A stretch of DNA of 17,186 bases from Candidatus Krumholzibacteriia bacterium. Its GTDB lineage: Bacteria > Krumholzibacteriota > Krumholzibacteriia > WVZY01. Numbering within the stretch: the first letter of the stretch is position 1; each line of letters starts with the position of its first letter. Shown piece after piece: positions 3-17,184 of this stretch. The notes below the pieces were generated by a model, which was not told the DNA's origin, did no database searches, and saw nothing but the letters and a program-made list of their open reading frames with translations. The position numbers and the translations under genes are program-made. The stretch lies in the NCBI GenBank assembly GCA_036478295.1, contig JAZGDW010000166.1, forward strand, positions 1-17,186, read 5' to 3'.

Positions 3-2495
3 GATCGTAATGTGATCCTGCGCCTGCGCACGATCGAGATCCCCCGGCGGGTGAGCTTCATCCAACACGTGGCCTCCTACCAGAAACAGGTCGGGCCGAT
101 CGTCCCAAGCCGTCCGGAGCTTACCGCCTCGGCCGACTCGCTCTCGTTCGCCACCGTTACGGTCGGGGACACCGTGTCGTTGGATTTGCGGATCGAGAAC
201 ACCGGCAATCAGGCTCTGACGATCACCAGCGTGACGTTGCCATCGGCCGAGATGGAGATCAACCGGTTGCTACCCATTACAATCACCCCGGATAGTACAG
301 ATACGCTGACTGTGTTCCTCCAACCCCGGACAGAACTCAATATTTCTGGGAATCTGCTCGTTTCCAGCGACGATCCCATCACCCCCGTTGCCTCGATCGC
401 GGTCACAACCGACATCAAGCCGCTTTCCATCGCGTCGCAGGCACTGCCCGACAGTACGACCGTGCCGCTCGGAGCTGGGGTAACCGTTCTAGTGATCCCT
501 GCCGAGGCTGTTCGGATCGAACGCGGCACACTTTATCATGGCGCTACCGGTGACACGGTGTTTTCGGCGGTTCCACTGAAGCTGTCTGGGGGTTTTTTCA
601 GCGGCATAATTCCGGGCGAAGCCGTCACGGAACTCGGGCTGCAATACTACGTCGAGGTCGAGAACAGCGGTGTCTTCAACACCGACCCGCCCGGCGCACC
701 AACCGATTCACTTTTCTTTCAGGCCGTCGAATCACCGATGTCCATCACGTCGGCGGCGCAGCCGAATTCGGGTGATGGGTTCGTCGAGAATCGAATCGTT
801 CGAGTGCTAGTCACATTACCGTTGGGCGCGATCTTCAAACGTGGCGCACTGCACTTCCGGCGCGGTGGCGAAGAGTTTTTCCAAGTCGACAGCCTTCGCA
901 CCGGCGATCCACTTGCCTTCGGCACCATTCCCGACTCACTCGTCGGGCCGCGCGGCGTCGAGTACTGGGTCTCGGTCGAAACGGAGTCCCAGACGATGCT
1001 CACCGACCCGCCTATAGACGCCGCCGGCAATCCCCGGTCGCTCTCGATTGTCGTCTCGGACCTCGTCGAGAAGAACAAACATGCCGGCGAAGTGTTCCGC
1101 CTGCTCTCGGTACCGCTGGCGATGCAAGGAACAATCACCGGTGCGCTCACCGACGACATCGGCGGACCGGACAACATGCGTTGGCGGCTCTTTGCGTTCG
1201 AGCCGGTTGGTGGCAAGAACTACTTGGAGCTCCCCAACGACAGCCTCTTTGCCTTCGAGCAAGGACGCGCCTACTGGCTCATCACCCGCGACGGCCACCG
1301 GATCGGCACCGGCCCCGACCTCGGCGAGACGACGCCGACCGATGGCATGTACGCGCTCACGCTGCAGCCGGGATTCAACCTGATTGGCAATCCCTTCAAT
1401 TTTCCCGTCGCGTGGGACTCGATGCGGGTCGATACGCTTTCGATGGCACAGGCGGTGTCGAAGCTCGTAGAACCACCGGTTCGGTGGGGTGGTTTTCAGT
1501 ACCGCGGCGATGTAACGGTGCTGGATCCGTTCGAAGGATATTGGGTAAAGAACCTGCACACCGCCGCGGTGGTGCTCCGCATTCCGCCAGAAGAAGCGGC
1601 GGGCGGTGCGACGCGAACCTTTCCTGCTACGGTGGCGTCCGCGGCCATAGCAACCACAACTGGTACGGACGGATGGCGGCTTCAGCTGAGTGCGAGATCG
1701 GGCGATGCGAGGGACACGTATAACTATGTCGGCGTGACACCCGGCGCAACACTCCACCGGGACCCCAGCGACCGATCGGAAGCACCAATGAGTCCGGGGC
1801 CTGCGATCTCGCTCTATTTTCCACACAACGACTGGGAGAAACACCCGGGGCCGTACACGGTAGACATGCGGGGTGAGGCTCAGGCCGTGGATACCAAGAC
1901 GCTAGGCCTCTCGCTAACCGAGCAAGAACTCTGGGGCTACGTGTGGCGTTTCGATGTGGCCAAGAACTTCTCGGTCGACGGGGCGGGTGATGAGGTCGTG
2001 CTCGACTTCGGCGATATCGAGAGCGTTCCCGGCGATGCGAAGGTGCTCCTGGTCGACCACGACCTCGATCGCCTCACCGACCTCAAGAAAGAGCACACCT
2101 ACCGTTACTTCCAGGGCGTGCGGGCCGTCGTGCAAAGCGAGAATGACGCCCGGTTTGCCCTCATCGTCGGCAGCGACGAGTTCATCGCGAAACGCGACGA
2201 CCTGCCGGCGCTGCCCACTCGAACGGTGCTCCACCAGAACTATCCCAATCCGTTTAACCCGACGACAATCATCCGCTACGAGATCGCGCGGCCCGGTGAT
2301 GTCACACTTCGGATGTACAATGCCGCGGGAGCGCTTGTGAAAGAGCTTTACAATGGCCATCGCGCAGCCGGCGTCTATGAAGCCGGCTGGAACGGGGAGA
2401 ATAACCAGGGCCGCAAGGTTGCGTCGGGAATCTATTTCTACAAACTGACCGCGGTGGATTTTGCGCAGACCAAGAAAATGATCCTGCTAAAGTAG
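3..2495 (+). CDS. Large secreted protein, 5'-truncated: choice-of-anchor D/ASH-like Ig domain, two duplicated beta-rich domains, C-terminal FlgD-Ig/T9SS type A-like sorting domain
   Basis: The frame is open from position 3 (GAT CGT AAT GTG), so GTG at 12 is probably not the true start. Ig motif 'LSFATVTVGDTVSLDLRIENTGNQALTITSV...SSDDP'. C-terminus 'LHQNYPNPFNPTTIIRYEI...WNGENNQGRKVASGIYFYKL...TKKMILLK', then TAG at 2493-2495. Confidence 0.85.
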   Translation, partial: DRNVILRLRTIEIPRRVSFIQHVASYQKQVGPIVPSRPELTASADSLSFATVTVGDTVSLDLRIENTGNQALTITSVTLPSAEMEINRLLPITITPDSTDTLTVFLQPRTELNISGNLLVSSDDPITPVASIAVTTDIKPLSIASQALPDSTTVPLGAGVTVLVIPAEAVRIERGTLYHGATGDTVFSAVPLKLSGGFFSGIIPGEAVTELGLQYYVEVENSGVFNTDPPGAPTDSLFFQAVESPMSITSAAQPNSGDGFVENRIVRVLVTLPLGAIFKRGALHFRRGGEEFFQVDSLRTGDPLAFGTIPDSLVGPRGVEYWVSVETESQTMLTDPPIDAAGNPRSLSIVVSDLVEKNKHAGEVFRLLSVPLAMQGTITGALTDDIGGPDNMRWRLFAFEPVGGKNYLELPNDSLFAFEQGRAYWLITRDGHRIGTGPDLGETTPTDGMYALTLQPGFNLIGNPFNFPVAWDSMRVDTLSMAQAVSKLVEPPVRWGGFQYRGDVTVLDPFEGYWVKNLHTAAVVLRIPPEEAAGGATRTFPATVASAAIATTTGTDGWRLQLSARSGDARDTYNYVGVTPGATLHRDPSDRSEAPMSPGPAISLYFPHNDWEKHPGPYTVDMRGEAQAVDTKTLGLSLTEQELWGYVWRFDVAKNFSVDGAGDEVVLDFGDIESVPGDAKVLLVDHDLDRLTDLKKEHTYRYFQGVRAVVQSENDARFALIVGSDEFIAKRDDLPALPTRTVLHQNYPNPFNPTTIIRYEIARPGDVTLRMYNAAGALVKELYNGHRAAGVYEAGWNGENNQGRKVASGIYFYKLTAVDFAQTKKMILLK

Positions 2496-2845: not shown

Positions 2846-3904
2846 CTACTCGAGCACTTTCACGTTTTCGTGAGTCGTCGCCCAGATATACCAGAAGGTA
2901 TCGAAACCGTTCAGCTTGACGAGTGTCGGCGCGGCGACCTTTTCGGCTTTTGCTTCCGGCTCGACGGCGAAACCGCCGGCGCTCGTAAAACTGTCACCGG
3001 TTACGGCGTAGCTCCACTTTCCATCTTTCATGACGAAACGGTCGCCCGCGTGGTCAACGTCGGCGATGTACGCATACGTGGATGCGAAAATCGATGAGCC
3101 TTTTTCCCGGAACAGAAACACTTCGCGGGTCTTACTGAGCTTGAATGAGCGGCCGCCCTCGAACTTCGAGTGTGCCACCGCATACGGGATCCCGTTCAGT
3201 TGAAACGCGTAGATCGACGCCTTGTCGTACATGCGCGTGTCACTGGTCGAGAGATTGCGGAACGTACGCGAGCTCGTAAAGTAGCTGTCGTAGGGGTTAC
3301 TCTCGTCGTGCTCTTTCCCATCGACGGAAAGGACTAGCGTGTCGGGATGACGCTTTTTCCATTCCCCCCACGTCATCTTCTCGGCGACCGGCACTTCCAC
3401 CAGCTGTGTTCCCTGCAGGACACCCCCGATGGCGTCGCCGGTTATGATGGACCACCAGCTGTCCGTCTCGCGGTCACGCATGACCAGGGAGGCGTTCATC
3501 AATCCGCCGGATGGCTCGAAAGCAAGTGTTTTTCCTGAATAACGACGGTCGTACACGACGCCCGTATTGGCCAGTGGTCACCAAACGGCGGCCAGGGGGC
3601 GCCCGGCGAAGTCATCGTTAACGATCTCGTGATGATTCAACAAGTTGAGGCTGTAGGCCTTGGCCACTCCGTTGTAGAACACGCCCATCACCCACGCGTC
3701 GTCACCGATTTCGGCCTCGTCGGCCGTTACGAACTCGGGGTCGAAAACGGCGGGAATGCCACCTCTGGGCAGGAGAATTTGAACCCCGGGCGGGGCCTCC
3801 TCGTCCTGGGCGAGGGCATCGGGAACGGCCAAATGGGCTGCTCCGGCGTACACCAGCGCTCCTGCCACCCCGGCAAGCACCAGGGCAAAAAACGTTCGAA
3901 ACAT
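2846..3904 (-). CDS. DUF3179-family exported protein, probable selenoprotein (352 aa, in-frame TGA = Sec109 at 3578-3580)
   Basis: Track ORFs 3578..4108 and 2846..3556 are in one frame, separated only by TGA: ...HHEIVNDDFAGRPLAAVW-TGA-PLANTGVVYDR...SGGLMNASLVMRDRETDSWWSIITGDAIGG...TWGEWKKRHPDTLVL...FWYIWATTH. These are DUF3179 motifs, and the TGA sits at the Cys of the family's 'CPL' motif. ATG at 3904 has AAAGGA 6 nt upstream. There is a signal-peptide-like N-terminus and a hairpin directly after the TGA. Confidence 0.85.
3535..3574 (-). promoter_or_regulatory. Putative bacterial SECIS element
   Basis: mRNA after UGA: CCA CUG GCC AAU ACG GGC GUCG UGUA CGAC CGUCGU UAUU CAG. The apical stem GUCG/CGAC closes a UGUA loop starting 23 nt after UGA. 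Lower pairings are GGC/GUC, AC/GU, AAU/AUU and CUG/CAG. Folded by eye. Confidence 0.7.
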
Positions 3905-3932
3905 AAGTTGTCCTTTCCGGGGCGACCGCCTT

Positions 3933-3961
3933 AATATAACATACGGGAACAAGCCGGGCAA
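3933..3961 (-). promoter_or_regulatory. Putative sigma70 promoter for the DUF3179 gene
   Basis: Minus strand TTGCCC (3961-3956), 17 bp spacer, TATATT (3938-3933), with an extended -10 TGn. It lies ~30 nt upstream of ATG 3904 in an AT-rich patch. Confidence 0.55.
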
Positions 3962-4040
3962 CGCTTGCCATTCGAGCCCGCCCCTGTGTTTCCCCGGGTA
4001 GCGATACCCGATCGTCCATCGCCGGAGGAGCCTTCTCCAG

Positions 4041-5102
4041 ATGCGAATAGAAGTGGTACCCGACGTCAGCGCCACCGAATGGCAGCAGCTCGTCGCTAAA
4101 GACCCCAAGGCCAGTTTTTTTCACACCCTGGAATGGGGCCAGTGCGTCCAGAGCATCTTCAAGGGATGGAACCGTTTCTTCCTGACAGCGAGAAGCGACG
4201 GTGAGCTTATCGCCGCCATTCCCGCCATGAGGCTTTCCAAGCGCGGCGTCTTCGCCATGATGTCGATGCCGTTCGGGACCTACGGTGGCCCCCTGGTCGC
4301 CGACGGAGCGCCGCCGGGCATCAGCGATGACCTCAGCCGCCGGTTCTTCGAGGCCGCGCGGCCGGCGCGTGTGGCGTTTGCCGAACTGGTGGACTTTCCC
4401 GCCCAACTCGCTGCGGTACCGTTCAAACGCATGCGTTCGGTGGAGGACGAAGCGCGCGTGCTCAGTCTCGAACCCGGCTACGACAAACTATGGACGGGAT
4501 TCAAGGATACAAACCGCAATAAGATCCGCAAGGCCGAAAAATCCGGCGTCACCATAAAACTGGCGGAGTCACGGGAGGATTTTCTCGCCTACAACGAAGT
4601 ACTGAGCGAGTGCTCCCGGCGCTGGGAGGAGCCGACTCAGTTTCACCGGGAATTTTTCGAGGCGTTGTGGGAGCTTCACAACGGCGGCATCCAAATGTGG
4701 CTCGCGGTGCACGACGGGGCGATTATCTCGGGACTGCTCAATTTTGCGCATAACAAGAGCGTGATGAACTGGGGTACAGTCTCTCTCCCCAGCGCGCGGC
4801 ACCTCGCTCCGGTCAACCTGCTCCACGCCCGCGCCATCGAGCACGCCGTCGACAAGGGTTTTTCGTTGTACAATTTCGGCTCGAGCGCCGGGATGGAAGG
4901 CGTGGACAAGTTCAAGGCCACGTTCGGTGCAGAGCGACTCCGCTACTATCACCACGTGCTGGAAAAAAGATGGTTTCCTATTTTTCGCCGCTGGTCACGC
5001 CGGCGACGCACCGATTACAAGACCTACCGCGGCAATGCCGGGTCGTTCGCGGAACACGAGGAAACGAAGCACGCGCCCGCGTCCGTCACCGCGAACCCGT
5101 AG
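4041..5102 (+). CDS. GNAT-family N-acyltransferase, FemAB-related / Acetyltransf_6 type
   Basis: GGAGGAG upstream of ATG. Motifs 'W..LV......SFFHTLEW', 'SMPFGTYGGPL', 'RNKIRKAEKSGV', 'NLLHARAIEHA...G...YNFGSS...GVDKFKATFGAE'. Confidence 0.85.
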   Translation: MRIEVVPDVSATEWQQLVAKDPKASFFHTLEWGQCVQSIFKGWNRFFLTARSDGELIAAIPAMRLSKRGVFAMMSMPFGTYGGPLVADGAPPGISDDLSRRFFEAARPARVAFAELVDFPAQLAAVPFKRMRSVEDEARVLSLEPGYDKLWTGFKDTNRNKIRKAEKSGVTIKLAESREDFLAYNEVLSECSRRWEEPTQFHREFFEALWELHNGGIQMWLAVHDGAIISGLLNFAHNKSVMNWGTVSLPSARHLAPVNLLHARAIEHAVDKGFSLYNFGSSAGMEGVDKFKATFGAERLRYYHHVLEKRWFPIFRRWSRRRRTDYKTYRGNAGSFAEHEETKHAPASVTANP

Positions 5103-7180: not shown

Positions 7181-9133
7181 CTATCCCCGTTTCCCCAGAA
7201 ACGAGCCGAAGAACCCCTTCTTGTTCCGTTGCTGCTCCATCTGCTTGACGACGAAGCCCTTGAAGGAAGACGAACAGATATCCGGTCCGGCTTTCGACTC
7301 GAGCAGGTAGCCGCGGCGCTCGAGATCCTCGTTCACGTACTTGTATTTCTTGTTGATCGCCTTTCCGATTGCGATGCGGCTCAGGTTGTCACGGGCTGGC
7401 TCGTCCATCCGCTCCCACACGAACCGGTAATGTTGATCCACTTCGTCCATATAGGATCGCTTGATCTCCTTCCAGTCCGGTTCGGCATCCGGGTTGTCCG
7501 TCAGGTACTCGAAGACATTCGCACACGCAACCTGGAGAAAAAGCGGAAAGTGGCCCGCGAGTTCCAGTATCCTGTCCGCGTAGGGTTCGAGCGGCACCCC
7601 TTCGGTCTCCGAGGGCGCGGTGATGAGCTCGAGCGCCTCGTCCTGCGTAAAGGGGCGAAGCGGCAAGTTGGAAAAGATATTAAAAAACGGAGAATCGGAG
7701 ATGTCCTTGTTGTGGCACATCCGCTGCAGGTCATCATAAGAGGATGTTACATAAGCAACCCGGTAACTGTTCGCCAGTGAGCGCAAAAACGAAAAGAAGC
7801 TCTCGTCGAAATTCTTGTTACGGGTAATGGCCTCGAATTCATCCATCAGGATGATGATTCTCTTGCCCTGGCCGTCCAGTTCTTCGATAGTCGCTTTCAA
7901 CTGGTCCAGAGTATTATCACGGCTTGTATAATCACTCCCGTCCTTCAATTCATAACTGAACATGTTGAACAAGAAATCGATAAAGCGGGGAATGTCATAG
8001 TCCGCGTCACTCTGAAAATCCATGTATGCGAAAATGGCATGCTCGTGGTTCTCCATGTTACGTCTTCGATTCCTGGGATGATAAACGTGGTTCAATAGCG
8101 ACGATTTGCCGATTCTCCGCTCGCCCACGACCGAGATCGACTGCGGGTGGGGGGCATCGAGACGCGAGTAGATCTTGCGGAGTTCCCTGGAACGCCCGAA
8201 GAACATACCTGGATTCTTGATCATTACGCGGTTGAGGTAGGGATTTCGCTTGCTGCCGCTCTTCGTGAAGACGTCGAGGCCGGAGAGTGTACTCGACAGC
8301 TCGCGATCCGCCGTCGTGAAATCCTTCTGAATCGCCTCGAGTTCAGAGATTACTTCGTCAAAATCGCGCGGGCGGCTGCGGGGATCTTTCTCGAGGCACC
8401 GCAAGATAAGCTCCTTCATCCCATCGGGCACGCCCTCGGCGAACTCGATATCAAAATGATTCAAGATGAGATAGGTAACCGCGTGGGGGTGTTCGGCCTC
8501 GAAAGGAAACCGACCGTTCACCAGACGATGCAGGCCGACACCAAAAGCAAAAATATCGACCCTGCCGTCGATCTTCTGGTTCTTGATTTGCTCGGGCGCG
8601 ATGTAATACGGCGTTCCGACCGCGGCGTGGCCGGACGTCTGGGCCTCTTCGTGAAGCACCTTTGCCAGCCCGAAATCCAGAACTTTGATGTTCTGCTCGT
8701 TATCTTCCCCTTCGTTGATCATGATGTTCCGCAGGGTCAGGTCCCTGTGGATGATGCCCTGCTTGTGCCCGTAGCTCATCGCCTGACAGACCTGGGTCGC
8801 GATCGTACAAACCTGTGAAATGGTCAGCGCCGTGCTCTTGCTGAGGTCCAGCAGATTGGGCCCGTTCACGTACTCCATGACGAGGTAGGGGCGGCCCTTG
8901 TATTCCGCAAAATCATGGACGGTAACAATATTGGGATGATTGAGCCTGGCCATGGATTCGGCTTCGAACAAGAAACGGGCTTTCGCGCCAGTGTGCACCA
9001 TCCGCTCATCCAGCACTTTGACCGCAACGGGCATCTTGAGCGTGGTATGGACGCCCTTATAGACTTCCGCAAATCCGCCCTTACCGACCTTCTTTTCGAT
9101 CTTGTATTTGTCTTGAAGAATCTTCCCGATCAT
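7181..9133 (-). CDS. Hanks-type protein kinase fused to a C-terminal STAND-like P-loop ATPase
   Basis: Kinase: GKGGFAEVY, VAVK, HRDLTLRN, DFG, GTPYYIAPE, DIFAFG. ATPase: NPY...FFGR, Walker A GERRIGKS (8102-8125), Walker B ILMDEFE, GxP-like 'AGHFPLFLQ'. No TM segment. The start overlaps the upstream stop (ATGA). Confidence 0.9.
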   Translation of the reverse strand: MIGKILQDKYKIEKKVGKGGFAEVYKGVHTTLKMPVAVKVLDERMVHTGAKARFLFEAESMARLNHPNIVTVHDFAEYKGRPYLVMEYVNGPNLLDLSKSTALTISQVCTIATQVCQAMSYGHKQGIIHRDLTLRNIMINEGEDNEQNIKVLDFGLAKVLHEEAQTSGHAAVGTPYYIAPEQIKNQKIDGRVDIFAFGVGLHRLVNGRFPFEAEHPHAVTYLILNHFDIEFAEGVPDGMKELILRCLEKDPRSRPRDFDEVISELEAIQKDFTTADRELSSTLSGLDVFTKSGSKRNPYLNRVMIKNPGMFFGRSRELRKIYSRLDAPHPQSISVVGERRIGKSSLLNHVYHPRNRRRNMENHEHAIFAYMDFQSDADYDIPRFIDFLFNMFSYELKDGSDYTSRDNTLDQLKATIEELDGQGKRIIILMDEFEAITRNKNFDESFFSFLRSLANSYRVAYVTSSYDDLQRMCHNKDISDSPFFNIFSNLPLRPFTQDEALELITAPSETEGVPLEPYADRILELAGHFPLFLQVACANVFEYLTDNPDAEPDWKEIKRSYMDEVDQHYRFVWERMDEPARDNLSRIAIGKAINKKYKYVNEDLERRGYLLESKAGPDICSSSFKGFVVKQMEQQRNKKGFFGSFLGKRG

Positions 9134-11331
9134 TGCTGAACGACCCCCTCGGCGGACATATCGATGGACAATTCCTTGTCCCCGCCCGAGAGCACCTGTA
9201 CCACCCTGGTTACGGTACCGTACGTCGGATGGCGCAACATGATCGTGTACGAGCCCTGCGAGAGAGACTGCTCATGACGCGACCCCTGTTTGACCAGGGC
9301 TCCGTCGAGATAGATCTTCGCGTAGGGCACCACTTTGATGGTCAGCTTGCCCGGCGGCAGTTTCTGGAGCTCGCTGCGAACTTCATTCCTAGGCGTGGGC
9401 ACCCGGATTGTCAGGTTCTTGGTCGCATAACCTTCCATCTCGAGCCGCAGCCGGTGCCGGCCGTAGACGAGCCTGTACATGTCTGGCGTCTTCCCCGCGG
9501 GCTTGCCGTCTATAAAAATCAAAGCCCCCGAAGGATCACTTTCGATACGAGTGTTGGCCATCGACTTTGCCAGATCATGATGACTGGTCACGACGGAATC
9601 CTCATAAACCTGGACACTCACCACCCGGCGGTCGTAGCCCTCCATGGCGAGGCGTATCTCGTGCGGGGCATTGACGGACAGGTTATCGAAGGTCCACGGC
9701 GTCACAGAATCTGTCTGCTTTCCATCCAGCGAGATTCTCGCCCCGCGCGGTGACGATGTGACTCTCACGCCGCCGGATTGCTCGATCAGCGTAATCAACG
9801 TATCAAAAGGCTCATCCGGCCGCAGCACCACCGTTGCCTCTGCCGGCTTGTACCCGGCAAGCTCGATGCGAAGAACAGCGCTCGCCGCGGGCACTACGAC
9901 ATTCCCCATGGGAGTCTGGCCGATCCTTCGATCATCCAGGAGAACCCACGCGTTGGGCGGCTCTGTCGCAATGGTCACACGCGTCGAATCTACGACCACG
10001 GAAACGCCCGGCTGGTTGGCGGGAGGCCTGGTAATGACCCACGTCGAGCCGGCGATCAGTGCGACAGCAGCCGCGATGGTCAGCGTCCTCGTGAGCTTCC
10101 TGCCCTTTATCCATTCGAGCCCCTCCCCGAGTTCCCCTTCCGCCGCTTTAATTTCATCGATGACCTGCCAGATCGAATGCATGCGCCCGGCCCAACGCCG
10201 CCACACATCCATCTTGAAAGTGTACTTGTTCTCGTCGCTTTCTTTTTCGAGTATGTCCTGGTGAAAAAGTCTCTCGAGCGTTTCATTCAGCGCATTGGGG
10301 TCAATGCTGAGTCCGATTTTCTCGTTCTTCCCATAGGCCAGGATTTCCTCGGCCGAGACCGGCTTGATCGCGTCCGTGTTCAGTTCCCCAATGATGGACA
10401 GGGCGAGTTTCTCGATGTCGGTCAGCGAGTTCCAGGCGAAGATCATCTGTGGCAGCGGATTCTCGATGATCTGGTCGGCGACGTTCTGGAGATCGTCGGC
10501 CGTCACTTCGTAGCGATGCACCTCGTTCAGATGGTCGACGAGCGCCTGGCATATGACCTGTGTGTAAAAGGGCTGGCCGGCGGTGAGCGCATAGATATGC
10601 TCCGGGACCAGCGGCTCGTACTGGATAACGTCGGCCAGAGGTTCCACGATGAGCCGCAGCGTATCCGCCTCCGTAAGAAAACTTATTCGGCGGTGAAGCG
10701 CCTTGACGAGAAAATGCTCCCAGTATTCGGCCTTTCTTTCCTCGAGCTTATCCGAACCCGTAAATACAATAAAAACCCCCTGCTTGTGTTCGATCCAGTT
10801 GGCAAAGAGGTTGAGAATCTCCGTACTTATGAGGCCTTTCACGTTATGGGTCTCGAATATCTCGTATTCGTCGAATAGGAGAATGAGCTTTTTCCCACCG
10901 AGACGCTCGTTGATCTTGGTGATCAGATTTTGAAACGCTTCCGACGAGCCGCTGTCGGTCTTCGCGAGAAAATCTCTTTCCAGGGAAATCCCGGGATCGC
11001 CAATCGCTTCGATGATGGCGCGGCCCAATTTGATCAGGAAATCGAGATCGTTCTCCACCGTCATCGCCTGCATGTCGATGAGCACCGGAAAAAAATCCTC
11101 CCCGAGACGACCGTTCATGATCTGAAAGAGGATCGACGTCTTGCCGCTGCGCCGGGAGCCGCATAGAACGAGGAGACCGCCCTTCTCGCCGCCCGTTACT
11201 TTTTGCCGGATGAATTTGAAATCGTCCTGCCGGCCGAAGAACATGTTCTGTTCCCGGATCGGATTGCCGACGATGTAGGGATTGGCGATCGGTTGGAAAT
11301 TATCTTTGCTGGCAGAGTTCATTAGGGGCAC
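9130..11331 (-). CDS. STAND-like P-loop ATPase - single TM helix - four PEGA-like domains
   Basis: NPYIVG...FFGR, Walker A GSRRSGKT (11137-11160), Walker B LLFDEYE, 'TAGQPFYTQ'. TM 'LTIAAAVALIAGSTWVI' follows basic KGRK. PEGA-type starts 'VTIATEPPNAWVLLD..IGQTP', 'VRVTSSPRGARISLDG...TP', 'IESDPSGALIFIDG...GKTP', 'LTIKVVPYAKIYLDG'. Start is GTG 11331 or ATG 11322. Confidence 0.85.
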   Translation of the reverse strand: MPLMNSASKDNFQPIANPYIVGNPIREQNMFFGRQDDFKFIRQKVTGGEKGGLLVLCGSRRSGKTSILFQIMNGRLGEDFFPVLIDMQAMTVENDLDFLIKLGRAIIEAIGDPGISLERDFLAKTDSGSSEAFQNLITKINERLGGKKLILLFDEYEIFETHNVKGLISTEILNLFANWIEHKQGVFIVFTGSDKLEERKAEYWEHFLVKALHRRISFLTEADTLRLIVEPLADVIQYEPLVPEHIYALTAGQPFYTQVICQALVDHLNEVHRYEVTADDLQNVADQIIENPLPQMIFAWNSLTDIEKLALSIIGELNTDAIKPVSAEEILAYGKNEKIGLSIDPNALNETLERLFHQDILEKESDENKYTFKMDVWRRWAGRMHSIWQVIDEIKAAEGELGEGLEWIKGRKLTRTLTIAAAVALIAGSTWVITRPPANQPGVSVVVDSTRVTIATEPPNAWVLLDDRRIGQTPMGNVVVPAASAVLRIELAGYKPAEATVVLRPDEPFDTLITLIEQSGGVRVTSSPRGARISLDGKQTDSVTPWTFDNLSVNAPHEIRLAMEGYDRRVVSVQVYEDSVVTSHHDLAKSMANTRIESDPSGALIFIDGKPAGKTPDMYRLVYGRHRLRLEMEGYATKNLTIRVPTPRNEVRSELQKLPPGKLTIKVVPYAKIYLDGALVKQGSRHEQSLSQGSYTIMLRHPTYGTVTRVVQVLSGGDKELSIDMSAEGVVQQ

Positions 11332-11394
11332 CCGTTACGCCGACACCTGCACGGCGTGACCACTCCTGAGATCGCTGTCCTGACCGCGGCACCA

Positions 11395-12159
11395 TCAGTT
11401 GGTAGGCGGATCCGGGGGTGGGGGTAGAGGATCGGGGGGCGGCTCCACCGGTTCATCGCCTCCACTCAGACCTACGGCCAGAGCGACAACGGCGACCACG
11501 GCCCCAGCGCTTCGGGTTAGCCACCACCACTTTCCGCGCTTGCGCTTCAGGGACACGTTTTCCTTGAGAGAAACACCCGGCCGGATGAGGACGCGTCCGG
11601 TGTAGTCGTGGTGTCCGGACTTGGCCAGTGTGAGATCGTATTCACCGGCCCTGACCAGCGCAAGGTGAAGTGGAGTGGTCCCGACATGTTCGGAATTCAG
11701 GAAAACCCGGCAGTCCTTGGGGTCTTCGATGGTGAGAGACCCGAACATCTCTTTTCTCAACTGGTCGTAGTAGTCGTTTATCGCCGGGAGAAACCAGTCC
11801 TGTTCGGCGGTGAGATCCGGGTACTTCTCCAGAGCCTCTCGGGCCGTTCGGACCGCGCTGCCGGTGTCTCCCTTCTCGTGGTGTATCGCGACCAAGTGGT
11901 TGTACGCCCTCCGCAACACGAGCTCGGAGTTCGAGTATTCTGTAATAATCTCCTGCAGCATGTCGATGGCCTGGTCGTACTCGCCGTCGACTTTGAGTTT
12001 GATGACCTCGTCGAACTTGCTGATTGCGGTGCTGCCTTCATCGCCCGCTCTCTGACCCATGACGATATTCGGTGCGATCCACGCACTGGCAAAAGCGATC
12101 AGGGTAGCAAGTATGAGGACCCTCGGGAACAGGGAGTCCCTGGAGATAAGCCGGGTCAT
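11395..12159 (-). CDS. Exported/membrane TPR + PEGA domain protein with C-terminal hydrophobic helix and Pro-rich tail
   Basis: GAGGGGG RBS and hydrophobic N-terminus. TPR-like 'GEYDQAIDMLQEII..Y', 'AYNHL.......GD...A......ALEKYPD'. PEGA 'GSLTIEDP..CRVFLN...VGTTPL......AGEYDLTLAKSGH'. Tail 'RKRGKWWW-hydrophobic-PPPDPLPPPPDPP'. Confidence 0.8.
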   Translation of the reverse strand: MTRLISRDSLFPRVLILATLIAFASAWIAPNIVMGQRAGDEGSTAISKFDEVIKLKVDGEYDQAIDMLQEIITEYSNSELVLRRAYNHLVAIHHEKGDTGSAVRTAREALEKYPDLTAEQDWFLPAINDYYDQLRKEMFGSLTIEDPKDCRVFLNSEHVGTTPLHLALVRAGEYDLTLAKSGHHDYTGRVLIRPGVSLKENVSLKRKRGKWWWLTRSAGAVVAVVALAVGLSGGDEPVEPPPDPLPPPPDPPTN

Positions 12160-12314: not shown

Positions 12315-13256
12315 TCACGGGCCCGCCCCCGGGGAACGATCGCCGGGGCCGGTCTCAGCCAGCACCGGGTATCCGCTGCTTTCCGTCTCCCTCTTGAAAA
12401 GCTCGCCGAGCCTCGTGGTCACCGGACCGATTTCGCCGGAGCCGATTGTGTGGCCGTCGACCGCCCGTACCCAGGCCAGCTCGCCCATGGTGCCCGTGCA
12501 AAACATCTCGTCGGCGCTGTAGACGTCGCTGGTGGATATGTCGCGCACCTCGCACGAGATATCGTCGTGGGCGCACAGGGCCAGTACCACCCGCCGCGTA
12601 ATCCCCTCGGGGCAGGCGTAGGCGTGAGGGGTTGCCAGGGTGTCGTTTTTCACAATGAAGACGTTCGTCGCGTTGGTCTCCGCAACGAATCCTCGTGTAT
12701 CCAGCATGAGCGCTTCATCCGCGCCGGCGGCACTGGCCTGTATCTTGGCGAGGATCGACTGGATGAGATTGGCGTGATGGATCTTCGCGTCCAGGCAATC
12801 GGGTGGAAAGCGCCGGACCGAGCTTGTAATGAGTGACAAACTGTCCGTGCCGTAGACCGGATCCTTGTGTTCGGCGAGGATGATGAACGTGGGACCAGCC
12901 TGGTTGAGACGGGGATCCATCCCGGACGTGATCTTTTCGCCACGCGTGAGCGTCAGGCGGATGTGCACGCCGTCGCACATGTGGTTGGCCTCCAGCGTGC
13001 GGCGGATTTCTTTTATGAAATTCTCGTGCGGCGGGATTTCTGTGAATGCTAGTGCCTTCGCGGAATCGCGCAAACGGTCCAGATGTTCAATCAAGCGAAA
13101 AATCCGGCCATCGTAAAGCCTCAGACCCTCCCACACCGCGTCGCCACCCTGGACGACACTGTCAAACGGGCTGACCCGCGCCCGGTCGCGGTGTACGAGC
13201 TCGCCGTTGATATTCACGACCAGGTCGCGATTCTTTTCGTTAAACGTTTGTTGCAT
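12315..13256 (-). CDS. PLP-dependent aminotransferase class IV (branched-chain/D-amino acid aminotransferase-like)
   Basis: Motifs 'VSPFD..VQGGDAVWEGLR', 'HLDRL', 'RLTLTRG', catalytic-Lys region 'DAKIHHANL', 'EALMLD..GFVAE....NVF', 'EGITR', 'ADEMFCTGT'. ATG 13256 has GAGG 5 nt upstream and avoids the overlap created by the track start at 13343. Confidence 0.9.
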   Translation of the reverse strand: MQQTFNEKNRDLVVNINGELVHRDRARVSPFDSVVQGGDAVWEGLRLYDGRIFRLIEHLDRLRDSAKALAFTEIPPHENFIKEIRRTLEANHMCDGVHIRLTLTRGEKITSGMDPRLNQAGPTFIILAEHKDPVYGTDSLSLITSSVRRFPPDCLDAKIHHANLIQSILAKIQASAAGADEALMLDTRGFVAETNATNVFIVKNDTLATPHAYACPEGITRRVVLALCAHDDISCEVRDISTSDVYSADEMFCTGTMGELAWVRAVDGHTIGSGEIGPVTTRLGELFKRETESSGYPVLAETGPGDRSPGAGP

Positions 13257-13287
13257 AACAGCCTCGGTGCGCTTGACCCAGGCGGAT

Positions 13288-14058
13288 TCACGCGCGCAGG
13301 CGGTGCTCGTAGAGTCTATCATACGACACGCGGCATTCTTCATGAACCGCGCGCAGGCGCTCCGGCACCGGGTCGGGCTTGGGTTTGTACGGCTGGAATC
13401 CCGTGGACTTCTCGACGGCGCCGTACCAGTACTTCGCCCACACCCCGTCCGTATCGCGGGGCCCGACCTGCCATGACAGCATCTCTTCCTGAAAAGGAAC
13501 CGCCACTGTCTCGCACAGCGCTGCCAGCATGCCCCGCGGGTTATCGAGAATGTCTTTGACGTCCAGAACCGGCGGTGCGACGCCGGCCTCTTCGCGCAGC
13601 AGCTCGAAAAGCTCCCACTGCTGGGGCAACCCCGTGTCCTCCACCGTCGGGCTGGGTGTCACTCTTATGAGCGAGGTCAGCATTTCACGGGGGTCGCGAA
13701 TCAAGAACGCGTTGGTCACCGAGTGGATCCACGCGCGGTCCATTCCCGGGAGCAGGTGGTGCGCCATGTGTTTCTGATAGAAAATCGACTTGCCACCGGG
13801 GATGTCACCGGTCAGGTACTCGACCACCTTGCGCCAGTCCGTCTCCTGGGTGGTCAGCACTTCTTCGCGGCCGGGGTGGTCGACGTTCGTGCGGCTGAGA
13901 TAGTGTGCGTAGAGCGGCTCGTCGCAAACAAAGGTGTCGTCCCGACTTTCCCACGAGCGCATGAGCGCTGTGGAAATGTTGCGCGGTCCCGACCACATCG
14001 CAATGCGAACGCCGGGTGCTTGACGCTGCGCTTTATCCTGACGCGTCTCACGAGTCAA
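13288..14058 (-). CDS. Sulfotransferase-like P-loop protein (Sulfotransfer_5-type)
   Basis: 5'-PSB-like loop 'RIAMWSGPRNISTALMRSW', 'DEPLYAHYL', 'YQKHMAHHL', 3'-PB-like 'FLIRDPREMLTS', 'ML.W..GP...DGVWAKYWY.AV..STGF'. TTG start has AAGGAG 8 nt upstream. Confidence 0.8.
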   Translation of the reverse strand: MTRETRQDKAQRQAPGVRIAMWSGPRNISTALMRSWESRDDTFVCDEPLYAHYLSRTNVDHPGREEVLTTQETDWRKVVEYLTGDIPGGKSIFYQKHMAHHLLPGMDRAWIHSVTNAFLIRDPREMLTSLIRVTPSPTVEDTGLPQQWELFELLREEAGVAPPVLDVKDILDNPRGMLAALCETVAVPFQEEMLSWQVGPRDTDGVWAKYWYGAVEKSTGFQPYKPKPDPVPERLRAVHEECRVSYDRLYEHRLRA

Positions 14059-14091: not shown

Positions 14092-17000
14092 TCACTTCAG
14101 CACTACCAACTTGCGGGTGCGAACGAAGGTGCCGGCTCTGAGTTTGTAGAAATACACACCACTGGCAACGGCATCGCCCGATGCGTTGCGGCCGTTCCAC
14201 GGAACCTTGTAACGGCCAGGCTGCTGGTACTCGCTCACCAGCTCGCGGACGCGCTCACCCCGCACATTGTAGATGACAAGCCGCGTCTCCACCGCGTGCG
14301 GCAGGTCGTAGGCGATGGTCGTCGTCGGGTTCAGCGGATTCGGATAGTTCTGGTGCAGCGCGAACTGCCGCGGAATATTTGGCAGGTCGTTGGCGAGCAC
14401 GGTTGTCACCGCGGTGGAACTCACAACGAGATGAGCCGGAATCGTCACCTCGGTGGTCAGCGGATCGTTGCTCGCGATTCCCAACTGCGCGCGGTAGTCG
14501 CCGTCGGACAAACCGGTGGCGTCAAAAGTCACCTCGACTTTCATCGAAGCACCAGCGGCTATCGTGCCGGCAAGCGGATTGGCAGAGATCCATCCCGGCG
14601 CCTCACTCACCCAGTTCAAGGCGTTTCCCAATAGAACCCCGGCGCTCGCCGGCCCACCGCGGACGAACAGGTGCCAGTCCGGATCGAGCCCACACAGCAC
14701 CACGCGGCCCCCTGTGACCGTGCCGGCAAGGATCGCGGCTGCCCCAGAAGTGGGCACGACCGCCACGGGCTCGAGCCCCGGCGGAAAACGTGTGAAGACG
14801 TTGTGAACCCCGTTGTTCCAGTTACTGAGGTCGGCGCTCGTTAGACTCGCCATGACGGGGTGAGACGGGTTTACGATATTGACCACGTTCCGATCGACGC
14901 CCAGAAAACCCGCGTCGAAGGGTAACCATCGCCAGTCCAGCGCATTGTCACCGTTTTCTGACAGGGCGACGAGCCCGCCGCCCGCCGCCACAAAAGCGGC
15001 GATCTCCGTCTTCTTGTTCACGAGTGCCTGCATACCCGCCGGGTTCGCACCGCCCGACGTTCGGCCGACGTAGAGCAAATCGAATTCATTCAGGTTGGTT
15101 CCTGCAAAAGCAGCGGGCGACACTCGCGTGTAGGGGATGCCCAGGACGTCCAGGACCCGGTAGTTCTCCGGCTTGCCGAGGTCGATGGTGACGATTTTGG
15201 GTATGCGCTGCGCTGTCGAGTCGGCGTCTGTAATCGCAATGATGAATTCCAGCGGGTTTGCCCCCGCCGAGTTATCGATGGTCAAAAGTTGTTTGGAAAC
15301 GCTACCCGAAGATAGGTGTTCGTGCAGCGAATCGGGCGACACCGAGATAACCGGCGGCAAGGCGCCCGTGCCCCTCAGACTCACGGTGACGACGGATTCG
15401 TCGGGATCGTCGCTTTCGATGGTTAGTGTTGCGGTAATGTCTCCCACGTTACTCGGCGCAAACGTGACCAGGACAACACGGCTCCCACCCACCTCCAGGT
15501 TGAACCCCGTCACATCGACGGTGTATAACCGTGCGTCTGTGGATAAACTGGTGACGTGCAGTGTGTCGGCACCCACATTCAGGACGGTCAGTGTATCGGT
15601 CGCCGATCCGCCGATGAACACGATCCCGTACTCGAGCACGCTATCGGACAGCGCAATATCCGCCGACGGGATCACGTGGAGACGCACCGGCACCGCCAGC
15701 TCCGGACTCAGGGGGTCGTTGCTTACGAGGACGATGGACGCTTCGAAATCACCAGCGAGACCGGCCGCGTCGAGCGTAATATCCGCATCCAGCGACGCCC
15801 CCGCCGGCACCGTGCCGACGAGTGGCGTCCCCCTGGCCCACCCGACGGGTAGTGCCCCATTGGATATCCATATCTCATCCCACCAAGCCTCGGCCGACGA
15901 ATCGAAACTGTATATGTCGAGGCGGAAAACGTCGTTGACGATGGGCGCGTTGCGCAAGGAGATGCCCGCAAGAACGAGCGTTCCATCTACATAATAATCG
16001 AAGGTCTTGGTCGCAAAACTGATGTCCTTGAGTTCAATGTGATACCACGTATCCGCGTTGTACGGGTAGGTGTCGTGACCACCGACATCGGCGTTGATAT
16101 AGAAGCCTCCTGACCGCTGCGCATAGAACCAGATGACCTCCGTACCGAATTGATCCCGCAGCACGAAATATGAGTCGTCGGCCCTTACAGACGACGAGCG
16201 AATGTAGAAACCGATGTACGCGGGCTGCACCGCACCGAGCCGCTGGAAGATCCCGTCGAAGTGACCGAACGTTGAATTGGAATCGTGGTAACTGTAAACC
16301 GTGGCCGCCGCCGCGGTGGCGCTGGTGACTTCTTTCAGTCCCGCACCGGCAATGATCCAGCCGTCGAAATCACCATCCTCGAAATCATCCTGCAACACAA
16401 TTGCCGCGGGCCCGCCCGGCGTCACCGCTTGCCCACCGAACGGCTGAGGCGGCCCGGCGGTTCCTGCGTGCGCGGGTTGGCGCGGCGCCATCCCGGTTTC
16501 TGCGTGCGCCGCTTGAGGCGGCCCGGCGGTTTCCGCGTGCGCGGGTTGTCGCGGCGCCGTGCCGGTCCCCGTTGGCGTTAGCGCCATCATGGGAGCAGCA
16601 CGCAACCGGACCTCCGGTAGATGCGCCGCGGATACATCCCGAGGTTGGGCCGCGGCAGCGGGCACGCCTGCAGGCGTATCGAGGATCACCATCTGGAATG
16701 TCAAATCACCGCCGCCAGCGCTGTTGTCGATGGTCAGCGTGTGTTTCGATGATTGGCCGGTGAACAGGCTGTCGCCCACCGCATCGGGTAACACCCGAAT
16801 CACGGGCGGCAGGAGTCCCTGGCCCAGCAGGGCGACGGTGAGGGTCTTTTGCTCGTGATCGTTGCTTCGCACAGCAAGGGTCCCGGCACTTGCACCCACC
16901 GTCGCGGGGGCAAAGGAGACCGCGACGGCCTGGCTTTCACCCGGGGCGACGTTCAAGGTGGAAACGCCGACGGCAAAGTCCGTTTTGCGCGGCGGCCGGA

Positions 17001-17184
17001 ATTCAACCGTCAGCAGGTCCTTCCCCAGGTTGGACACGGTGAGCGTATGGGTGGCTACACCGCCGATGAATACCGCACCGTAGTCCAGCAACGTATCCGA
17101 GAGAACGATGTCGGGCGCGGCGGCGACGGTGAGACGGGCGGGCACCTCGATCACCTGGGCGAGGGGGTCGTTGGTCTCGAAGAC
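14092..17184 (-). CDS. Very large secreted modular protein, 5'-truncated: repeated choice-of-anchor D/ASH Ig domains, inserted lectin-like and GATase-like domains, FlgD-Ig/T9SS type A-like C-terminal domain
   Basis: The frame stays open to the window edge (VFETNDPLAQ-VIEVPARL, matching the internal 'SNDPL...PVRL' repeat). Two 'DI.LSD..L.YG.VFIGG.AT.TLTV.N.G.D.L.V' domains. C-terminus 'FALHQNYPNPLNPTTTIAYDL...WNGRNASGDAVASGVYFYKL...TRKLVVLK'. Confidence 0.88.
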   Translation of the reverse strand, partial: VFETNDPLAQVIEVPARLTVAAAPDIVLSDTLLDYGAVFIGGVATHTLTVSNLGKDLLTVEFRPPRKTDFAVGVSTLNVAPGESQAVAVSFAPATVGASAGTLAVRSNDHEQKTLTVALLGQGLLPPVIRVLPDAVGDSLFTGQSSKHTLTIDNSAGGGDLTFQMVILDTPAGVPAAAAQPRDVSAAHLPEVRLRAAPMMALTPTGTGTAPRQPAHAETAGPPQAAHAETGMAPRQPAHAGTAGPPQPFGGQAVTPGGPAAIVLQDDFEDGDFDGWIIAGAGLKEVTSATAAAATVYSYHDSNSTFGHFDGIFQRLGAVQPAYIGFYIRSSSVRADDSYFVLRDQFGTEVIWFYAQRSGGFYINADVGGHDTYPYNADTWYHIELKDISFATKTFDYYVDGTLVLAGISLRNAPIVNDVFRLDIYSFDSSAEAWWDEIWISNGALPVGWARGTPLVGTVPAGASLDADITLDAAGLAGDFEASIVLVSNDPLSPELAVPVRLHVIPSADIALSDSVLEYGIVFIGGSATDTLTVLNVGADTLHVTSLSTDARLYTVDVTGFNLEVGGSRVVLVTFAPSNVGDITATLTIESDDPDESVVTVSLRGTGALPPVISVSPDSLHEHLSSGSVSKQLLTIDNSAGANPLEFIIAITDADSTAQRIPKIVTIDLGKPENYRVLDVLGIPYTRVSPAAFAGTNLNEFDLLYVGRTSGGANPAGMQALVNKKTEIAAFVAAGGGLVALSENGDNALDWRWLPFDAGFLGVDRNVVNIVNPSHPVMASLTSADLSNWNNGVHNVFTRFPPGLEPVAVVPTSGAAAILAGTVTGGRVVLCGLDPDWHLFVRGGPASAGVLLGNALNWVSEAPGWISANPLAGTIAAGASMKVEVTFDATGLSDGDYRAQLGIASNDPLTTEVTIPAHLVVSSTAVTTVLANDLPNIPRQFALHQNYPNPLNPTTTIAYDLPHAVETRLVIYNVRGERVRELVSEYQQPGRYKVPWNGRNASGDAVASGVYFYKLRAGTFVRTRKLVVLK
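16445..16566. repeat. Intragenic direct repeat, 53 bp x2, period 69 bp
   Basis: 16445-16497 vs 16514-16566 match at 48/53 by eye. They encode TGTAPRQPAHAETAGPPQ and TGMAPRQPAHAGTAGPPQ. Confidence 0.9.

Follow-up and report, generated by a model that had tools for sequence, protein, structure and literature searches.

A DUF3179 gene with an in-frame UGA codon from a Candidatus Krumholzibacteriia bacterium: conserved SECIS-type hairpin, very probable lone selenocysteine and predicted Rieske-like fold

The window analysed here, a stretch of 17,186 nucleotides (nt) from a Candidatus Krumholzibacteriia bacterium (contig JAZGDW010000166.1), contains on its minus strand a DUF3179 gene (2846..3904; 352 codons and a TAG stop in a single frame) interrupted by one in-frame TGA. 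The comparison of sequences leaves us in very little doubt that this codon, number 109, is decoded as selenocysteine (Sec) and that the gene is intact and not split. That this is a real selenoprotein gene of a known family is well supported, and the assignment of a Rieske-like fold to its product is plausible. The recoding itself is not new: DUF3179 has already been catalogued as a predicted selenoprotein family.

Recoded codon, SECIS-type hairpin and host selenium machinery

Between 3904 and 2846 the frame is open throughout, its sole internal stop being the TGA at 3580-3578 (context A-A-V-W-TGA-P-L-A-N-T-G). Translation table 11 yields two open reading frames (ORFs) instead, 3578..4108 and 2846..3556. 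The first-pass annotation, which did not state the strand, had taken them for one frame broken only by the TGA, and the read-through protein bears this out with a single stretch of PF11376 (residues 48-346 on profile positions 2-290 of 292, E 2.3e-62; 211.5 bits compared with a Pfam gathering cut-off of 27). A search of NCBIfam gave no family model matching this protein. Besides position 109 it contains no cysteine at all. As had been noted earlier, the 5' end has a good ribosome-binding site, GGAAAGGA (3911..3918, minus strand), with AAGGA at 3915-3911, 6 nt 5' of the ATG. The promoter claimed along with it can be located as a sigma-70-like match with an extended -10 element (3933..3961, minus strand); the match is weak, however, with one site found and 0.4 ± 0.6 expected by chance.

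The assignment of Sec to the TGA (3578..3580, minus strand; W-U-P-L-A-N) draws on the frame, the homologs, an independent contig and a link with selA. A scan of species genomes resulted in 76 loci, 67 near ones (44-80% identity in the segment spanning the UGA site) and 9 distant ones. The record titles of the near loci name Krumholzibacteriota, Acidobacteriota, Gemmatimonadota, Polyangiaceae, KSB1 and others; the nearest locus (L010, ~80% identity) is itself titled Candidatus Krumholzibacteriia. All 67 near loci have TGA at the position of codon 109 (U-P-L-A in 66, U-P-L-T in one), and all 9 distant loci have TGC or TGT there, with C-P-L-C/T in eight of them. Conservation of TGA or TGC among relatives and alignment of the UGA with Cys, both proposed in the first-pass annotation, are thus found. 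A public contig of independent origin (run X4, record 27, 3508-3661) also bridges the UGA site unchanged; it differs from the window at two letters (3595 and 3600). selA was detected in 30 of the 32 genomes tested (of 67) that have the TGA form; among the Cys-form genomes it was detected in 0 of 9. This comparison is not a formal test, given that the Cys genomes lie far off in the phylogeny and that related genomes do not count as independent.

At the protein level we compared 120 listed database relatives out of 380 matches. Of these, 98 align only downstream of codon 109, the miscall that the earlier reading had foreseen for standard pipelines. In the others the column reads C-P-L-A (20), S-P-I-A (1) or a gap (1), so that Ser stands at position 109 in 1 of 22 full-length near homologs. 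The C of the 20 listed C-P-L-A proteins is a protein-level letter; the one related locus read at the DNA level, L086, has TGT and is the only one that a metagenome scan for Cys-form orthologs returned. The position three residues further on varies among homologs (C, T, A, V, R, Q) and is Ala112 in the window protein, in place of the Cys or Thr of the listed UxxC/T motif.

Downstream of the UGA lies a selenocysteine insertion sequence (SECIS)-type hairpin (3545..3565, minus strand) with the loop C-G-U-G-U at 3557-3553; the second ORF begins, with GTG at 3556, within this loop. The first-pass annotation had noted neither the hairpin nor that the protein has no partner cysteine. Counting the U of UGA as 1, columns 17-24 pair with columns 27-35, and a loop N-G-U-N-U starts 20 nt past the UGA. 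Over the near loci, 88.6% of 536 cells are paired, 30 of them with changes on both sides; the column pair 20-32 is mostly mismatched (44 of 67). None of 500 shuffles reached the observed pairing and covariation values, and slid structures pair at 27-53%. Of 7 pairs, synonymous recoding with the peptides kept gave 5.20 ± 0.11, and in 2000 rounds never more than 5.57, compared with 6.73 observed, and the two Val third positions are C-C or G-G in none of 67 loci where ~24 would be expected. Among fetched loci of different DUF3179 subfamilies, 25 TGA copies have a mean of 6.76 hairpin pairs and 13 Cys-codon copies 3.15. The hairpin is conserved beyond the demand of protein coding. It also fits the bacterial SECIS model, which places a loop of 3-9 nt with a G in its first two positions 16-37 nt from the UGA (PMC13188914): here the distance is 20 nt and the loop has 5 nt and carries a G among its two leading positions.

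Folding energies weigh against this interpretation. The z-scores are unremarkable; the 21-nt conserved hairpin alone reaches only -5.8 kcal/mol (SECIS threshold -7.5), and the 46-nt region reaches -9.3 kcal/mol, yet in a shifted register. This register is favored by the window RNA, in which the conserved pairs have a probability of ~0.1. In the homolog RNAs the conserved register is dominant in 23 of 67 and the shifted one in 3 of 67, and 62 of 67 regions reach -7.5 kcal/mol. SelB would, on binding, need to pick out the conserved form of the hairpin. The 44 nt covering UGA and hairpin (3546-3589) are, in addition, so strongly conserved that for many diverged contigs of other organisms they are the only part of the gene matched, with a sharp depth peak in all four runs, and could be used as a probe for the clade.

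The first-pass annotation had implied Sec machinery in the host. Its genome (3.5 Mb in 316 contigs, 90.9% complete) indeed contains selA (E 8e-143), selB (E 1e-114) and a tRNA whose anticodon is TCA and which Rfam classes as tRNA-Sec (68.1 bits vs 47). Of selD only the 5' part was found, at a contig end and with a score below the family cut-off. This selD (G000:C118:2-229, L004) is itself a selenoprotein gene, truncated by the contig end, with TGA in C-A-G-U-A-S-K; U-A-S-K is the motif tabulated for SelD in PMC13188914. Among related genomes selA is present in 56 of 61, and in 39 of 39 of high quality. The genetic code is otherwise ordinary: TGA ends 5 of the 11 window genes and all 80 Trp codons of these genes are TGG, in agreement with the earlier view that UGA is unlikely to stand for Trp or Gly.

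The host has four DUF3179 genes, each with TGA at the same site. The other three (G000:C98:16471-17124, C53:9979-10470 and C30:19275-19733; L007-L009) have the motifs U-P-L-T, U-P-L-A and U-P-L-V, respectively, and the same hairpin with compensatory changes; two of them are short single-repeat proteins with lipoprotein-like leaders.

Protein architecture and predicted fold

The protein starts with a likely Sec-pathway signal peptide (residues 1 to ~32; 3809..3904, minus strand), judged by eye from its basic start, hydrophobic core and A-L-A end. The leaders of homologs are similar and hydrophobic, with no conservation, and a twin-arginine pattern occurs in 0 of 67. The domain that follows (residues 78-179; 3368..3673, minus strand) is all-beta and Rieske-like in our model, lacks cluster ligands and holds Sec109, H92, E93, R120 and D144. 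By this model the first half of the protein is predicted to fold like a Rieske ferredoxin and to qualify as a Rieske fold. The second half is predicted to be a diverged repeat of the first (residues 219-352; 2849..3250, minus strand; hhalign probability 89%, E 2.4e-6). It contains neither Sec nor Cys, and a Rieske-like fold is assigned to it only through this internal repeat.

His92 and Glu93 are invariant in 42 of 42 aligned N-domains, and Arg120 and Asp144 are invariant too; several Sec paralogs have lost His92. Sec109 is placed by strand ranges and alignment limits, not by coordinates. It would be located at a beta-hairpin, cross-strand from His92 and Glu93 and away from the former cluster site, which now appears to be occupied by the invariant Arg120 and Asp144. 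A replacement of the first Rieske cluster Cys by Sec109 (C-P-H read as U-P-L) is ruled out by the alignment limits, because model residue 65 pairs only with ferredoxin residues 23-36 and the ligand is Cys44; this exclusion (92 of 95 spanned ferredoxin residues aligned) assumes a sequential alignment. There are no C-x-H or C-x-x-H cluster ligands in the window protein and, as judged from its sequence, it is not a member of the Rieske [2Fe-2S] proteins.

A Foldseek search of the PDB gave no match at E 0.001 for either model. A PDB sequence search with an 87-row alignment resulted in 0 matches at E up to 10, PF00355 did not match the 42 N-domains at E up to 5, and hhalign against Rieske domain profiles from 30 loci was not significant (under 3%). 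Thioredoxin-fold, MsrA or MsrB chains are not among the 50 structural matches listed, which does not exclude them. Two uncharacterised giant-virus proteins from Indivirus and Hokovirus, BFVD entries A0A1V0SD44 (E 2.5e-7) and A0A1V0SF28 (E 3.7e-3), are similar in fold to the model.

Proposed mechanism and rival explanations

We propose that the protein is an exported single-selenol redox enzyme on a cluster-less Rieske-like scaffold, recycled by an outside reductant. We hold this proposal with middling confidence and favor it because of the family motif U/C-x-x-C/T and because the residue at +3 is dispensable here. SelB and Sec-tRNA would bind the hairpin 20 nt 3' of the UGA and Sec would be inserted, a step of which we are nearly certain, machinery and hairpin having been observed. 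To judge from its sequence, the N-terminal leader would then export the protein to the periplasm. There the first half is predicted to adopt the Rieske-ferredoxin-like fold, with the second half as its diverged repeat, and Sec109 would be exposed at the beta-hairpin opposite His92/Glu93, apart from the former cluster site. By analogy, the selenolate might attack an oxidised substrate (peroxide, sulfoxide or disulfide); the chances of this seem to us about even. Re-reduction of Sec by a thiol donor from outside the protein, much as one-Cys peroxidases are recycled, is proposed because the protein has no partner cysteine, and could equally go either way.

Three other explanations have to be weighed. 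The TGA might be a true stop, a sequencing error, or Trp or Gly under another code, leaving a pseudogene or two genes; the 98 of 120 listed database proteins that begin past codon 109 would agree with this. The comparative data refute it, however, and we consider it extremely improbable. The near loci come from several phyla, all 67 have TGA at this codon with both halves intact, and the independent contig is unchanged across the site; sequencing error or chance is rejected, and the strict selA link and the conserved hairpin point the same way. Another code is ruled out by the homolog column, which has Cys and not Trp or Gly, by the ordinary TGA stops and TGG codons, and by the tRNA-Sec.

In the second explanation Sec109 would, together with His92/Glu93, be a ligand of Cu, Hg or As, soft metals or metalloids, and the protein would serve in the periplasm to chaperone or scavenge metal, without redox catalysis. 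A lone Sec with no resolving Cys would suit this role, as would the invariance of H92 and E93, probable cross-strand neighbors by strand register, and the fact that in two related genomes a distant subfamily has a UbiA-family (heme O synthase-like) gene as its neighbor, accompanied in one of them by cytochrome oxidase III/IV genes. That oxidase-linked subfamily, however, entirely lacks the first Cys/Sec, His92 is missing in several Sec paralogs, and genes for metal transport, regulation or resistance do not recur near the clade among the scanned neighbors described below; we regard metal binding as rather unlikely. Sec109 could also act as nucleophile on a periplasmic substrate, in a covalent reaction that is not redox (group transfer or hydrolysis) and has His92/Glu93 as acid-base partners. 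The single nucleophile near an invariant His and Glu, the free variation at +3 and the occurrence of Ser as well as Cys at position 109 in full-length homologs are compatible with this, but Ser occurs only once in 22, no hydrolase or transferase fold is among the structural matches listed, and characterised bacterial selenoproteins are described as mostly redox proteins (PMC13188914). This last explanation we judge unlikely.

The single-selenol proposal can be extended, as a possible but doubtful idea, to the whole family: DUF3179 may form a large and so far unrecognised Rieske-fold branch in which the [2Fe-2S] cluster was lost and a Sec/Cys site arose elsewhere in the domain, a non-thioredoxin class of periplasmic selenoenzymes in which the U-P-L-A clade uses one selenol without a resolving thiol.

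Our results correct a common miscall: because 98 of the 120 listed relatives are fragments starting past the UGA, a widespread clade is mostly invisible as full-length protein. The predicted cluster-less Rieske fold with its lone Sec is a concrete scaffold with candidate residues (U109, H92, E93, R120, D144), and the natural Cys versions (C-P-L-A) can be expressed without selenium machinery. With these at hand the DUF3179 family becomes testable.

Genomic neighborhood and comparison with known systems

On one side the gene has a divergently oriented FemAB-like GNAT gene in the window, and on the other side it faces a gene for a secreted FlgD-tail protein; L010 shares the GNAT side and not the other. 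No conserved neighbor was found around the 67 near loci, the largest cluster covering 10 of them; neighbor ORFs were cut at TGA (thresholds 1e-8 and 1e-12), so that split selenoprotein neighbors could escape. Pfam scans covered 93 of 180 selected neighbors of the near clade (most of the remainder being repeats from close loci or ORFs lying farther away) and, for paralogs and distant forms, 85 of 130. Thioredoxin, CcdA/DsbD and Msr families were absent from these scanned neighbors, which included one bacilliredoxin.

Two further DUF3179 subfamilies were observed. In two related genomes a membrane-anchored one without the first Cys (N-P-L-C, S-P-L-C; L104 1177-3440 in G054, L164 311-2436 in G059) follows the heme O synthase-like gene of the UbiA family, and in L104 genes for cytochrome oxidase subunits III and IV lie alongside on the opposite strand. 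The other consists of short homologs from one genus-level group (L110-L115) with Arg replacing Cys/Sec (R-P-L/F), flanked in the scanned loci by one gene for an ABC-2 permease and one for a MutY-like protein; by sequence they are apparently non-catalytic.

Elsewhere in the window, three coupled genes (7181-12159, minus strand) encode a fusion of Ser/Thr kinase and STAND NTPase (nSTAND2), an ATPase that has PEGA repeats and a protein of TPR-PEGA type, which from their domains look like a signalling or conflict system. A sulfotransferase-domain gene (PF19798) overlaps a class IV aminotransferase gene (12315-14058, minus strand). Two large proteins (12-2495, plus strand; 14092-17154, minus strand) have Ig-like ASH/HYDIN domains and FlgD/T9SS-like C-terminal tails. 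The gap between convergent genes (2560-2700) contains a short GC-rich repeat, GTTGGGTTGGTGACGGAGCCGTTGCGGGA, twice in the stretch read.

Like a bacterial in-frame SECIS read by SelB, the window hairpin lies inside the frame, 20 nt from the UGA, with G-U in a 5-nt loop; it differs in that the 21-nt hairpin alone is weak and competes with a shifted register in the window sequence. From Rieske ferredoxins (2qpz, of naphthalene dioxygenase, and 1vm9, of toluene monooxygenase) and from the NirD-type Rieske-fold protein 3c0d the window protein differs in that it has no ligand boxes, with 8-20% identity and no profile match. Its Sec maps to ferredoxin residues 23-36 and not to the first ligand Cys44, and it has an N-terminal arm, a second repeat and no twin-arginine leader. 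In the literature searched, no paper connects DUF3179 with the Rieske fold, a link that structure classifications (InterPro, ECOD, AlphaFold DB) may already record, and none gives the family a function or a solved structure.

Single-Sec or single-Cys thiol oxidoreductases (GPx-like UxxT proteins, one-Cys peroxiredoxins, Sec-MsrA) have one reactive residue that is recycled by an outside reductant. Motifs of single-Sec oxidoreductases such as GPx-like UxxT are tabulated in PMC13188914. The DUF3179 protein, known here from sequence and model, would resemble them in the proposed working principle only; no thioredoxin or MsrA fold is assigned to it, and it has no Pfam match to those families.

That Sec-containing DUF3179 members are known, as stated in the first-pass annotation, agrees with tables in two reviews (PMC9312934, PMC13188914), which list the predicted family with the motif UxxC/T and credit it to Zhang and Gladyshev 2007 (PMC1976440), and with the name 'DUF3179 domain-containing (seleno)protein' given by NCBI to two relatives (49% and 40% identity). 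None of the unnamed 'OS_HP' families seen in PMC1976440 could be matched to DUF3179. The window protein shares with the listed selenoproteins PF11376 over its whole length, Sec as the first residue of U/C-P-L-x and an in-frame SECIS-type hairpin. It differs in the U-P-L-A motif of its clade, absent from the tables of both reviews, in having no second Cys, in its standalone gene and in its likely cleavable leader. By sequence, the lone Sec in UxxA is a motif variant of the known DUF3179 selenoprotein family.
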